Source: Octopus vulgaris (lineage: Eukaryota). From it: 64,000 nucleotides of DNA. Below the pieces are notes generated by a model. The model was not told the DNA's origin and made no database searches. It worked only from the letters and a program-made list of their open reading frames with translations. Made by a program: the position numbers and the translations under genes. Position 1 is the stretch's first letter, and each line of letters begins with the position of its first letter. Positions 4,514 to 52,500 of the stretch are shown here, in pieces. Location: NCBI GenBank assembly GCA_951406725.2, contig OX597830.1:68944001-69008000 (forward strand), written 5' to 3'.

Positions 4514-7500
4514 GTTTGTTCTTCATTTCGATAGAACAATAATTTTTTTTTTTTTGCTTTTGTTGTTGTCATCACTGTTGATGTTATTAAATATGTTGTT
4601 GTTTATCCCCTATTAGCCCTGATAGAACAGGTCTATGAACATATGTAATCCAGTCTTTATTTTCCTGTATTTACATACTTATTAGAAGACTTTATTATTC
4701 CACTGTGTCAGTCTTCATTTTTGCTGAAAGGGTATGATTTGAAATGGATTTAACTTATATTTTTAGCAGTTTCGAGTGGCAAGGTAATCTGCTCCCTCCT
4801 TGGCTTGCAACTCTGCTATTACTATAGTTGATAGTTTGATCTTAGAGCTGATATTAATAGCGTTGTAGATATTTAGAGCTTTGACTGAAACTGAAGACTC
4901 ATCAGATTTCTTTAACTAAAGACTCAAACTTTTGGCAGTATGACATGACACTGATGATAATCATAATATTGATTTGTTATTTTGACACAAGGCTCCATAT
5001 TTGCTGGGGAAGGATAATGGGTCCAATTCAGGACATGCCTAGAGATGTTTGGTTTTGTCTGTTTCGTTTTCCATCCAATTTAAAAGATCAGATCAAGCAG
5101 TAGGTATCATGAAACAACATGAAAACACATTAATAGAAATGGTAATTATGAATAAATCTGGTATGGGTTTAACCAGTTCTGGGCACACTGGCTCGGGCTG
5201 TAAACTTAATTCATTCCATCTTTTAACACTGAAGTACCTGGTGGTGGTTCAACAGGAGCATTTGGTCCTTCACTGCCTTTAACAGTCCACAACGTTGTGA
5301 GCATTCAGAACCGGCCATGTCTTGATTTACAGTCTTTTCAATTCGTAGCATCACTGTTTGCTACAAGCTGACATGTAAGGGGTTCTCAAAAGGAGGTCTA
5401 CTAGCATATATGCCAGAGTTACTATGAGCAACATCTCTAGAAACAACCCCATTTCTTGTCAGGTCTCCCCAATCTATGTCTTCCAGGTTAATTATTTACA
5501 AGATCCAAAAATAGATTAGCAGCAACCCATGAGTTCTGTTTTATCCATGTCTTTACCTCATCAATCTTAGTTGTTCTGTAAAAATTATGGGTGGTGCCTT
5601 TCCTCCTTAAATTAAGATTTGTCCCATCATTTGTTATCTATATCACTAATAGTGTAGCCTGATTAACATAATTCTGATTAGGGCTCCAAGGTAGCCTAAC
5701 TTATCTTGTTTGTGACATCAGTATAGACCTTATGTTATTCTTTATAGCTAACTTTCTTTTAATCACTATTAAAAGATTTACATATTAATTTCTGAAATAA
5801 CTCTTCTTTCTCCATCAATTCTAAGGAAACTGAAAACTGATATCAGAGAGAAAATTATTAAAGAATTTGAAAAGGAATTGAAAGGAAAAGGGATAGATAA
5901 CATGGTTGACTATGTGTTGATGTCCCTAAAACGACCAAACTTGCTGACTGTTTATGATAAAGATTCAGTGAAAGAATTTGATCTAACAATGTTCAAAGCT
6001 GTATTCAAAGGTAAGAAATAGTTTAAAATTAAATTTTCAGTTTTTTTATATTTTCCAATCAGTTTGATTTTATTTGACGTAATAGTAATTTAGATTAATT
6101 ATTGCTAATTAGACTAATTATTACACTTGTAAAAAAATTGAGAGCTATTTTTAGTATTAAAAATCTAAAAAATCTAAATTAGGATGAAATATGCAGAGAA
6201 AGAATAACAATATTATTGATGACTTATACTATTATTTGTATATTTTCTTGTAAGTTTTGGGAGGTTAATCCTGTACCTGAAGTTTAATTAAGCTTCATCA
6301 ATAAGAGAATCGATGGCTGTATCAATGGATTTTCTAGAGAAGCTTCTGGTGTCTCAGTGAATTGTATGTTGTTATTAGCATTGTACTTTGTCTCTGGTGA
6401 AGACATTTAACTCACAGGTTCCCCTTTTCTATATTACTGAAAATAGATACAAAATAGTAAAAACAGTATGCTTCTGCAATTGTTATCACGATGAATATTT
6501 TCCAGATTTGAGGCACTCAATCTAACCTTAGCCATAGAAATAGTTAGTTGGAAATAGTTCTTGTCTTGACGAAATTGTCATTTAATATATCGGCACAAGA
6601 AGGCAGCAAACTGGCAGGAACGTTAGCATACTGGGTGAAATGCTTCGTGGTATTTGGTCTGTTTTTACATTCTGAGTTCATCCTTTTGGGTGTCGATAAA
6701 TTAAGTATCAGTTGCATATTGGGATCAATCTAATCCACTGGCCCCCTCTCCAAAAGTTTCGGGCTTTTTGCCTAGAGTAGAAAAGAATATATAGGCGCAG
6801 GCATGGCTGTGGTAAGAAGCTTGCTTCCCAACCACATGCTTCCAGGTTCAGTTCCACTGCATGGCACCTTGAGCAAGTGTCTTCTAAAATTGTTTCAGTA
6901 TGGATTTTGGGATGGCTGGACAAATGTGTCAAAGAGACAGAGACATTGAGAAGAGCCAAATTAATCAATACTGAAAATATTGCGCTCGACATAGACATAG
7001 AAATCAGAGAATTAGATCTCAATCGCCCACACATCTAGGAACAGTGGAAATAGAATACATCACAAAAATGAAAGAGTAAATTAGTAGAGAATATTAAAGA
7101 ATAGTTAGACTTATATTTAAACACTGAAGTCAATGCCGAAACTAATATAATAGAAACAAACATGCTAGCTATACTGATCATACTTGAAGAACAGTGAATT
7201 GAAAACCTAAGATAAAAAGACCCTATTAGCAGCAAACAGAAGTCACCACCCCACAGCAGACAAAAACAGAATATATCTACCCCTCTCAGGAGATGGTGTT
7301 CTTACACAGATAGAGAACTACAAAATAAAAGCAGTTGGACTGGAAATGTATTTACAAAGAACTGGTGCAATAGAGTGGAGAAAATTACTGCCCATATCAT
7401 GAACGAGTGCCATAGACTTGACCAAAATCTCTATAAGTTGTGACCACACGATCATGTAGTGAAAGTGCTCCACTGGAAACTGTGTGAAAAGTGAGGGCTA

Positions 7501-49500: not shown

Positions 49501-52500
49501 CCTTCGGTTATATGCTGTGCTTGAGATGACTCGACAAGCCAAGGGAATTCCCAGTTGTGGCCGTTGATGGTGTCATGTAAATTGCACCCATGAAATTGTT
49601 ATTGTGGCCGTTGCCAATAGCATGATCTTCATATGTCGAACCTCACAGAACCTCACAAGCAGCCTACAACATGGCGATATGCTGTGCTTAAGAAAACTCA
49701 TCAAACCAACTGAATCAGTAGTCATGGCCTTTGCCAGTGTTATGTAAATGGCACCTGTAAAATCGTAGTCATAGCCGTTACCGGTGTCGAGTACGTCACA
49801 CCCGTCCTAGTGACATGCAAAACGCACCCATTACATTCTTGGAGTGGTTAGCATTAGGAAGAGCATCCAGCTGTGGAAACCATTCCAAATAAAACAGGAA
49901 GCTGCTACAGATCTCTGGCTTACCAGTTGCATTAAAATCGCCTAACCCATGCCAGCATGGAAAGTGAACATTAGATGATGATGATGATGACATACACACA
50001 CACACACACACACACACACACACACACACACACACACATATATATATATATATATATATATATATATATATATATATATATATATATATATATATATATA
50101 TATATATATATATATATATATATATATATATATATATATATATATATATATATATATATATATATATATATATATATATATATATATATATATATATATA
50201 TATATATATATATATATATATATATATATATATATATATATATATATATATATATATATATATATATATATATATATATATATATATATATATATATATA
50301 TATATATATATATATATATATATATATATATATATATATATATATATATATATATATATATATATATATATATATATATATATATATATATATATATATA
50401 TATATATATATATATATATATATATATATATATATATATATATTATATATATATATTATTCAAAGGAATTCCAACTCTGTCTGTTTTTTACGTTTTATCT
50501 ATATTCTTTATAATATTAATGTAGAATATAGAATATATAGTATAAATAGTATATATAGTAAAATGAAATGAAGTATTGATTGTCTTATTGAATAGATGAA
50601 ATCCTGAATATCAAATATTAAGGGACTAGTATACTTTCTTGCATTTAAGCAGTTTTCAAGGTCTCAGGTTGTGACAGGAATGTTTCAACTGTACTTGACT
50701 GTCTGTCTTTTGTTCTTTATATACGTTCCTGTGGACAGCAGTAGTGGTTGCTTGGCTAATTTTAGAGATGATGCCAAACCATTTTTCAGTGTTTATTCTT
50801 AGAAATGATGACAGCAGAACTTTTTAGGGATTTTTGTTTTTTAGGTATAGGGATAAGATTTTAAACCTTAAATAAGATTAATTTAATCCTTGTTTATTAA
50901 GCTTCGGTTTGAATTTATTAATTTTCTCTCAGTTTTCTCTCGATTTTGTTCAGATTGTATAGTTTATGAAATGGAAATATCATAAATGTTTTCTGACCAC
51001 ATGTTGCCAGATGGTTACGCAGTGGTATCTGGCGGACTTCTGGATTTTTAATTTGTTGTCGATGCATACGCGAGCGTTCTGATAGTGCATTGCCTGTCTG
51101 GCCAACATACAGTTCTTCACAATTTGGGCATTTGATGCAGTAGATTAAATTTCTGCTTTTGCAGTTCATGTTCACGTTTGTGAATATTTTCCCTGCTTTT
51201 GTGTTCATACATGGGCCAGTATGAATTAATTGGCATGTACCACATCAGCTATCATTGCATTTAGACACAGTGAATGGTTGATCTTTGTTGCTAGGGTCAA
51301 ACCTTGCCTTAGTTAATAACTTTTTCAAGCTTTTAGGCTGTCTCTTGCTGAGAGTTATAGTTTGATCTGTAATGATATTTCTCAATTCCTTACTTTATGC
51401 AATGATTGGTAGGTTTGCGTTAGCGATATTGAAGATGTTCTGGCGGCATGGATTGTGTGTCACTATAAATGGTATGATTTGTTCTTGTTTTTCTCTTCTT
51501 TGCGGTGTCCTCAGTTGTTGTATGGGTATTTTCATAGCCTGCTGAATACCATTTTCTATAAGTAGTTTTGTTTGAGCAGAAATTCTTTCAGTTTCATCAG
51601 GCACTGATTTTGAATATCGACTGATGGTTTATTTTAAAATCTATATTAAAGGAAGAAAAGAATTGAAAGAAGTCATGCTTACATCGAAGAGAAAAAGAAT
51701 TGATAGTCTACTAAATAACGTATTTTCAGACGGAACTCAGTGGCAAGTAAGATTATATATATATATATATATACATATATTTATTATTTTATCAATTCAT
51801 GTAATGAACCATTAATAAATTGATTTTAATTTCTCTTTCCTGAGAAGAAAAGTAAAATTACATAGGTAAAATATGTATTTTAAAGATTGTTTACTGAAAG
51901 TTTTTAAAATTTTATGCTTGTAAAATATTCATTGTTTGTTTTACTAACATTTTCACCAGTCTTTCCTCTCTCTTGCATTCTCTATGTGTCTATACACACA
52001 CACACATATAATTATAAATTGTGCAAAGGTTATAAAAATTACAACACAATGGCAGCGTAAAACAAAAACACAGAGTTGGTAAAACAAAAACACAGAGTTG
52101 GAAAAAAGCAGTAAGAAGGAATAATCTGTAATATTTCGATTATTGGCTCATCTTCTGAAAGATAGGAGAGACATGGAAATACCAAAAAGGAAAAGGTAAA
52201 TTGGAGAAATTGAAACACACATGTATCTAACTATCTCAGTATGATGGATAACTGGAATTAGTCTGGCATATGTGTGTGTATATGTGTGTGAGTATATATG
52301 TGCACTTTCTTGCTTGCTTCTATGTATAGATAAGGCTATTGTGTACCTGTATATTCTCTGTGTGTGTATGTATGTTTATATCTGTTGATATGTTTGTGTA
52401 TGAATAGTATGTAGAAATGTGTGAGGCGGGTGGTGTGTGTATGAAGAAGGGGTGGTAGGTAAATAAAGAGCATTGAGTACTAAGATGGAAGAAAAGTATG

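Follow-up and report, generated by a model that had tools for sequence, protein, structure and literature searches.

TRPM channels are described with one set of the melastatin regions MHR1/2, MHR3 and MHR4 in all members (PMC13143021, section 27). According to passages of PMC6759353, Y295, R302 and R358 of human TRPM2 bind ADP-ribose in the MHR1/2 clamshell, together with the beta5-alpha3 loop and the beginning of helix alpha7, and MHR3/4 transmit the ADP-ribose-driven movement to the pore. Mutants of TRPM2 at M215, Y295 and R358 are reported in a passage of bioRxiv 10.64898/2026.03.30.715250 to bind ADP-ribose less well. For octopuses, Table 1 of a 2026 survey (PMC13402157) credits each Octopus species with a single alpha- and a single beta-TRPM, and two TRPMs are reported for Octopus vulgaris in a passage of PMC12919962. 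Here we describe a stretch of 64,000 nt of the O. vulgaris genome (OX597830.1, positions 68,944,001-69,008,000, forward strand), called the window below, which contains modules 2 and 3 (M2 and M3) of one gene in which the TRPM N-terminal SLOG/MHR1-3 module is repeated in tandem to form an array.

Like TRPM2 and beta-TRPM (6MIX, 6CO7), the octopus array has a SLOG MHR1/2 followed by MHR3, and other copies of it include MHR4, the pore and the Ca2+ site. Unlike them, it repeats the MHR1-3 unit two to five times where TRPM2 has one, and its ratio of nonsynonymous to synonymous substitution rates (dN/dS) is near or above 1. It differs further from TRPM2 in the incomplete pocket of the array modules, in having no NUDT9-H family listed, and in a filter reading YAE instead of YGE. 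A common exon structure with common phases and alignable intron flanks connects the array to three octopus channels, T1, T2 and T3 (P0014, P0016 and P0017/P0020), with T1/T2 as its sister group. In contrast to the array, T1-T3 have one module each and are under purifying selection (dN/dS 0.26-0.43 between their pairs, obtained as a control with the same code as used for the array), and T3 has the full pocket. Repeated SLOG regions ahead of one pore also occur in the TRPM models P0301 (XP_072049890) and P0212 (Sanderia malayensis). These are of independent origin, each pair grouping with itself, have two copies only, unlike the array, and are unverified gene models; the Sanderia repeat includes MHR4. 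In the bacterial antiphage system Thoeris, ThsA employs a SLOG fold to sense a nucleotide signal and to gate an effector, and the resemblance in fold to the octopus array may be taken as a lead only. No description of the array was found in the literature searched, a search that lay outside most subscription journals and the supplements of PMC13402157 and PMC13143021, which may list array accessions. The terms 'SLOG', 'MHR' and 'tandem' occur nowhere in the text of PMC13402157, and the passages of PMC7306681 contain no such array.

Splice reconstruction of the window joined 13 plus-strand exons with AG/GT ends into a single frame of 493 aa with 0 stops, and two separate genes were therefore rejected as an account of the duplicates. 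The paralogous exons pointed out in the earlier note belong to this one gene, as exons 6-8 of its modules 2 and 3. Each module comprises about 370 residues and corresponds to the TRPM N-terminus from the SLOG/MHR1-2 clamshell to the end of MHR3. Matches above cut-off to Pfam LSDAT_euk ('SLOG in TRPM') were obtained for three of 11 window exon peptides, while whole public models matched with E values of 1e-70 to 1e-232. The window gene is matched by eight public proteins, all from Octopus, with two to four LSDAT_euk stretches and without an Ion_trans match; proteins with two to four such stretches are known from three Octopus species and carry the database labels 'uncharacterized' or 'TRPM SLOG domain-containing'. 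The best PDB matches are human TRPM2 (6MIX, E 2e-55) and the Nematostella-type channel (6CO7, E 2e-52). MHR3 is present after the SLOG region: the alignment of P0008 to TRPM2 extends across the L-x-L-x-W-N-R motif, and this part is helical in the AlphaFold model. The AlphaFold model of P0007 (modules 1 and 2 from another copy), computed from a 62-row alignment, shows both modules as alpha/beta SLOG domains plus helices at a mean predicted local distance difference test score (pLDDT) of 73.4; it stops at module-2 exon 8 with pLDDT below 50 there and is uninformative on that helix pair.

In a tree of 28 SLOG cores, all array modules form one clade (99/95) whose sister group is T1/T2; Sepia and T3 fall outside it, and the modules of O. 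vulgaris and O. bimaculoides pair up as orthologs one by one. With a single alpha-TRPM as outgroup, support for grouping the array with Sepia TRPM2 is 100/99, and with TRPM2 of molluscs and Xenopus 81/91. The array arose within Octopus from a duplicated, probably beta-TRPM (TRPM2-like) gene, before the split of O. vulgaris and O. bimaculoides. Amino acid identity between these two species is 76-82% for the modules, 93% for T1, 84% for T2 and 97% for T3, and both O. bimaculoides P0009 and O. sinensis P0001 have open frames throughout their four modules. The array would work in the manner of a TRPM2-type channel N-terminus, and by sequence and descent its gene is a TRPM derivative, one that departs from the single melastatin region of the family, with two to four SLOG stretches per model, and from the ADP-ribose pocket of TRPM2. 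A profile search of 1.84 billion representatives gave 1269 matches; among the 150 listed, seven have more than one stretch. Two of these seven are the octopus proteins discussed here and two are the independent two-SLOG channel models, while P0159, P0162 and P0242 look fused or unverified.

Module-3 exon 2 has 29 matches in the O. vulgaris genome (G000), seven of them at 97-100%. Searches with further exons and 160 genome stretches resolved about seven near-identical array copies on contig C17 (G1-G7, the window being G5), three further modules of the fifth type, and the three single-module genes T1-T3 (P0014, P0016, P0017), which are full channels. G5 and G6 are 99-100% alike, and some array copies may be alleles or assembly duplicates. 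In four of the seven copies, exons 1-4 of M1 are joined to exons 5-8 of M2 (stretches, in the order listed, L078/L079 in G2, L097/L096 in G3, L100/L101 in G4 and L127/L126 in G7). P0011 of O. vulgaris runs from module 4 through an acidic linker and module 5 to the pore, and P0012 of O. bimaculoides from the end of module 4 through the linker, module 5 and MHR4 to the first helices; MHR4 and a six-helix pore follow module 5 in P0011, P0012 (partially) and P0013. The linker exons were placed in order between modules 4 and 5 in G7 and G2 by tblastn, while a direct linker search gave one weak match. The O. bimaculoides models for M1-M4 (XP_052830016/17) and for M4-M5 with transmembrane helices (XP_052830018-21) have consecutive accessions. 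A search with the pore exon returned nine matches: five at 91-100% to the array-type channel on C17, the three of T1-T3, and one on C9. In G4 and G6, transmembrane exons follow the module-3 exons across a 100-N gap in the same orientation. From these overlapping pieces we infer a full gene of the order M1-M2-M3-M4-acidic linker-M5-MHR4-six-helix pore. Module-4 exon 1 is present twice in the gene copy of the window, 5.7 kb apart (L040:7773-7857 and L112:481-565). P0013, P0130 and P0131 are O. sinensis isoforms from a single cluster. In the first two, exons 1-4 of module-1 type are joined to exon 5 of module 5, whereas P0131 has exons 2-4 of module 5; module-skipping splicing or an annotation artefact are both possible sources of this difference.

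The earlier note had claimed that the duplicated exons diverged faster than the duplicated introns, and its counts were reproduced. The two intron blocks of Table 1 are identical at 118 of 133 positions (89%) and the two 95-nt exons 8 at 51 of 95 (54%), with four of 31 whole codons (four of 32 counting the split codon) giving the same residue; the last 36 residues of the two exons 7 share 16 by hand count on the translations. The in-frame indels of 3 nt and 24 nt and the lack of stops were both found again, and the net 12-nt length difference of exon 7 results from the 24-nt gap together with the acceptor of the second copy, which lies 12 nt further upstream. Self-comparison showed a collinear duplicate (4299-6506 and 46430-48859) plus short matches at the 95-nt exons. 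Over the ungapped intron columns of this duplicate, 1461 of 1862 (78.5%) are identical, so that the 89% block, being the best window of this alignment, is unrepresentative; a best 133-column window with at least 118 identities occurred in 12.6% of 5000 shuffles (P=0.13). The introns flanking the 95-nt exons are, as had been suspected, less similar than the block (34 of 50 and 127 of 173), and exon 8 is low even against flanks of 70-73% (binomial P 6e-4 to 4e-5). Over all eight exons of the M2/M3 pair, exons are 71.0% identical (990 nt) and intron flanks 78.2% (1959 nt), with the exon below its own flanks in six of eight cases, exon 4 about equal and exon 5 higher; the flank figures are from MAFFT alignments, X-drop flank identities being biased upward. 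The fair contrast for this module pair is 71.0% versus 78.2%, not 54% versus 89%. Protein change beyond the neutral expectation is supported, most clearly in exons 7 and 8, but the size of the effect had been inflated because the best intron block was set against the worst exon. Strand pairing of the 89% block with the exons was considered and rejected (best inverted match 16 nt, E 0.05).

Selection was analyzed with purpose-written GY94/MG94 codon models, using a separate tree for each exon because the modules recombine. T1-T3, seven frameshifted exons and a duplicate of exon 1 were kept out of the tree fits. Identical rows were merged (17-23 per exon), and 346 codons remained once gappy columns had been removed. 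With all modules aligned, the check that had been proposed for the locus gave tree-wide dN/dS above 1: 1.22 pooled (likelihood-ratio test statistic, LRT, 5.55), 1.72 for exons 7 and 8 together (LRT 11.1) and 2.02 for exon 8 (LRT 6.7). One-ratio values for exons 1 to 8 were 1.76, 0.75, 0.98, 1.02, 1.76, 1.24, 1.59 and 2.02. Fully neutral simulations (n=67), in which GC-richer codons decay to intron composition under rate variation, gave 0.81 +/- 0.06 pooled, with maxima of 0.97 pooled, 1.10 for exons 7 and 8 and 1.37 for exon 8, and none of the 67 reached the observed values. Six intron blocks read as pseudo-codons gave 0.68-1.42, none significant. By branch class, dN/dS was 1.07-1.27 between modules, 1.30-1.61 among recent copies (different from 1 in two of three models) and 3.1-3.4 for module-4 exons 6-8. 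Variant codons among recent copies comprise 218 nonsynonymous and 44 synonymous changes, and per site the exons have changed more than the introns in three of four module classes. Exon 8 is 95 nt long in all 21 intact array modules sampled, and in the window pair its dN of 1.1-1.2 compares with a dS of 0.22-0.30 and a flank distance of 0.33. The pooled M2a fit places 17% of sites at 0.15, 55% at 1 and 28% at 3.0 (M2a-M1a statistic 74.6), and 14 of 346 codons have a posterior above 0.95, mostly in loops and MHR3. These data show array exons evolving at or above the neutral rate, and broad relaxed constraint together with real positive selection, clearest in exons 7 and 8, is the best reading of them.

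Pocket residues were numbered on the human TRPM2 chain of the alignment and tabulated for 29 modules, some of them without certain exons; GGPGT and GGAKNF are the putative octopus counterparts of the alpha7 start and the beta5-alpha3 loop. The full pocket occurs only in T3, one of the 29, which reads M, F, R and R at M215, Y295, R302 and R358. No array module has all of M215, Y295, R302 and R358 plus GGPGT: M1 is without GPGT and R358, M2 is without the Y295 loop, and M3-M5 have Y295, GPGT and R358 replaced. The M1/M2 hybrids pair Phe295 and Arg302 of M1 with GGPGT and Arg358 of M2, a near-complete pocket absent from either parent. This combination would favour some role of pocket chemistry; alternatively, the hybrids may descend from one inherited deletion. 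In the terminal channel the Ca2+ site is kept, with E, Q, N, D and E in P0130 matching E843, Q846, N869, D872 and E1073 in the vertebrate TRPM2 alignment, residues whose roles in the S2-S3/TRP-helix site of TRPM2 are described in a passage of PMC6759353. Its pore loop (P0130/P0011) reads YAE, while T1-T3 and Sepia read YGE, a difference that may change selectivity. PF25969, which we take to be NUDT9-H from its distribution, appears in none of the annotations of P0011-P0020 and is listed for other mollusc TRPM2-like proteins.

Table 1. Exons of the array gene and compared intron blocks in the window
Feature	Position	Strand	Remarks
M2 exon 6	4425..4513	+	SLOG/MHR1-2 end; TRPM2 R358 equivalent kept as Arg; AG/GT signals, frame
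M2 exon 7	5826..6010	+	MHR3 helices; aligns to the TRPM2 MHR3 region
Intron block, 89% identical to second copy	6374..6506	+	Best window of the 78.5% intron alignment
M2 exon 8 (95 nt)	10466..10560	+	Last MHR3 helix pair, TRPM motif L-x-L-x-W-N-R; fastest-evolving exon
Linker exon (38 nt), start of next module	16879..16916	+	Identical peptide in public models P0001-P0005
M3 exon 1	20589..20673	+	
M3 exon 2, SLOG	27361..27541	+	LSDAT_euk E 6e-11
M3 exon 3, SLOG	36958..37121	+	LSDAT_euk E 2e-12
M3 exon 4, SLOG	39357..39516	+	LSDAT_euk E 6e-8; Ser at the Y295 position, Lys at the R302 position
M3 exon 5	43641..43744	+	GGPGT helix-start motif changed to EELET
M3 exon 6	46558..46643	+	R358 equivalent is Lys
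M3 exon 7, MHR3 helices	48188..48360	+	Translation, frame
Second copy of the intron block	48727..48859	+	Alignment with 6374-6506
M3 exon 8 (95 nt)	51652..51746	+	Weak AAG acceptor; Trp of the TRPM motif changed to Arg
Linker exon (26 nt) toward module 4	57758..57783	+	Peptide in P0001; next exons past the window (stretches L039, L040)

The peptide type of M3 exon 8 is also found in O. sinensis P0001 and O. bimaculoides P0002. The window also contains several kinds of repeats. A perfect palindrome in an intron at 14863-15322, with two 229-nt arms that are 100% complementary and 2 nt between them, is either real or an assembly artefact. Nested perfect inverted repeats with arms of 154 nt and 68 nt lie at 38719-39293, directly upstream of M3 exon 4, and an (AT)n run of about 210 copies at 50038-50456 separates M3 exons 7 and 8. 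Repeated, apparently decayed retroelement-like stretches fill introns at 1640-3760, 21000-22330, 24100-27000, 29700-34500 and 40300-41300, as judged by self-matches. An element of about 520 nt is tandemly duplicated at 61153-62204, the copies being 90% identical.

The explanation we prefer, with a probability of roughly 0.6, is an Octopus-specific multi-module TRPM in which tandem modules under relaxation and positive selection have altered their ADP-ribose pockets and become a retuned sensor. Each subunit would have as many as four additional clamshells in front of a Ca2+-sensitive cation channel. The conserved single-module paralog T3 may have kept the ancestral ADP-ribose gating, and its retention of that job could have freed the array to be released and retuned. 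About half of the array sites would then drift and the SLOG core would remain under constraint; a smaller share of the sites, in loops, in MHR3 helices and in the exon-8 helix pair at the module boundary, would be driven to change by pressure from changing ligands or binding partners. Unequal crossing-over presumably keeps producing new module numbers and hybrids. The likely function would be that of a fast-retuned intracellular sensor or regulator of channel gating, without the canonical response to ADP-ribose. In a normal TRPM, the exon after the exon-8 equivalent continues into MHR4. The exon-8 helix pair of the array would lie at a new module-to-module interface because internal modules are without MHR4. 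Such an interface is a plausible reason for the speed of exon 8, against which stands that module 5 has changed there too.

A number of results weigh against this explanation and are best considered together with the alternatives. Pure relaxation, which we regard as improbable, would make the extra modules dispensable passengers, with GC-richer exons mutating faster and the selection signal arising from indel-rich loops and rate variation. Exons have 36% GC while introns and flanks have 25%, and dS (0.33) exceeds the Kimura two-parameter (K80) intron distance (0.26), so part of the exon/intron gap is mutational. This composition was built into the neutral simulations, none of which reached the observed pooled, exon 7 and 8, or exon-8 ratios; those simulations are, for their part, free of alignment error, and exons 7 and 8 were chosen since the earlier note had flagged them. 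The 55% of sites fitting a ratio of 1 agree with passenger modules, as do the 201 of 346 codons lying more than four codons from an indel, for which dN/dS is 0.90-1.09 and the M2a-M1a statistic 12.6-20.6. In six runs, null data with codon-level rate variation gave statistics of 0.8-31.5 (alpha 2-5) and 85-95 (alpha 1); because rate variation alone can inflate the site test in this way, it proves little by itself, and M2a versus M1a was rejected as sole evidence of selection. Exons 2-4 reach only 0.75-1.02, the M1/M2 and M1/M3 pairs 0.96-1.17, and the between-module branches differ from 1 in one of three codon models. The window pair is marginal, with whole-module dN/dS of 1.31-1.54 (LRT 1.9-5.3) and an exon-8 LRT of 3.0-4.4, yet its exon-8 dN is four times its dS at a length held constant among the intact modules. 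The loss of ADP-ribose residues in every array module fits decay as well as retuning; selected sites at the pocket, suggested by per-exon fits, were not upheld by the pooled model, in which these positions have posteriors of 0.5-0.8 or less for the selected class. Eight 1-bp deletions in seven exons, spread over six of the seven copies, could likewise be signs of decay, but P0009 and P0001 each retain four open modules, SLOG core motifs are kept, and the changes among recent copies, with their nonsynonymous excess and faster exons, speak against passengers. Homogenization of the introns by gene conversion, with the exons keeping an older divergence, is largely refuted and in our view extremely improbable. 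Modules do exchange, as the hybrids demonstrate, and M4/M5 are 94% identical behind exon 5 and M1/M2 88% before exon 7. However, flank identity between M2 and M3 is 71-88% at each of the eight exons across 40 kb, where the earlier note had considered that high intron identity might be confined to a local conversion tract. The cited block is equally similar to module 4 and to T2 (107 of 126 identical), so it is no tract private to M2/M3 but an unremarkable best window; and the exon-8 dS matches the flank distance, hence the exon is not older.

It appears rather unlikely that the window copy and the annotated 'uncharacterized' proteins encode a soluble multi-SLOG protein without a pore, which would act as a nucleotide buffer or bind TRPM channels and tune them, and that a separate gene encodes the channel behind module 4. 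P0001-P0010 are without an Ion_trans match and the models of three species end in module 4, but they break at a long repeat-rich intron with assembly gaps. No pore exon was found downstream of the window copy, including 50 kb there, and its sequence ends at a 100-N gap beyond module-4 exon 5; G2, like G5, reaches such a gap before any pore. Seven array copies compare with five pores of array type, and a weak search for proteins above 2491 aa yielded none that unites five modules with a pore. Against a separate channel gene, two copies, and likewise P0011/P0012, continue in frame order from module-4 exons 6-8 through the linker to module 5, and because of these two proteins and the pore search the poreless reading was lowered. 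The 1-bp deletion in module-4 exon 3 of the window copy would, if real, truncate it; all eight frameshifts are single-base deletions, a pattern linked with long-read error. A more far-reaching and quite doubtful version of the preferred multi-module channel is an octopus-specific nucleotide receptor of combinatorial type. Each subunit of this TRPM would bear as many as five SLOG clamshells with different tuning, giving 20 in a tetramer; unequal crossing-over, and perhaps splicing that skips modules, would recombine the repertoire, and the receptor would be engaged in an arms race over danger or immune signals derived from NAD+. The near-complete pocket of the M1/M2 hybrid would be in line with it. 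Nothing was found that points to a toxin gene, the third of the immune, sensory and toxin classes which the earlier note had associated with such divergence.

Contig C17 holds eight TRPM pore exons and the sensor-module array, which public annotation has split into 'uncharacterized' pieces. If the five-module channel is true, it would be a new TRP architecture and a natural library of SLOG pocket variants for ligand tests, and octopus would have in it a candidate for a sensory or immune receptor that evolves fast. Should the extra modules only drift, the correction of the annotation remains.

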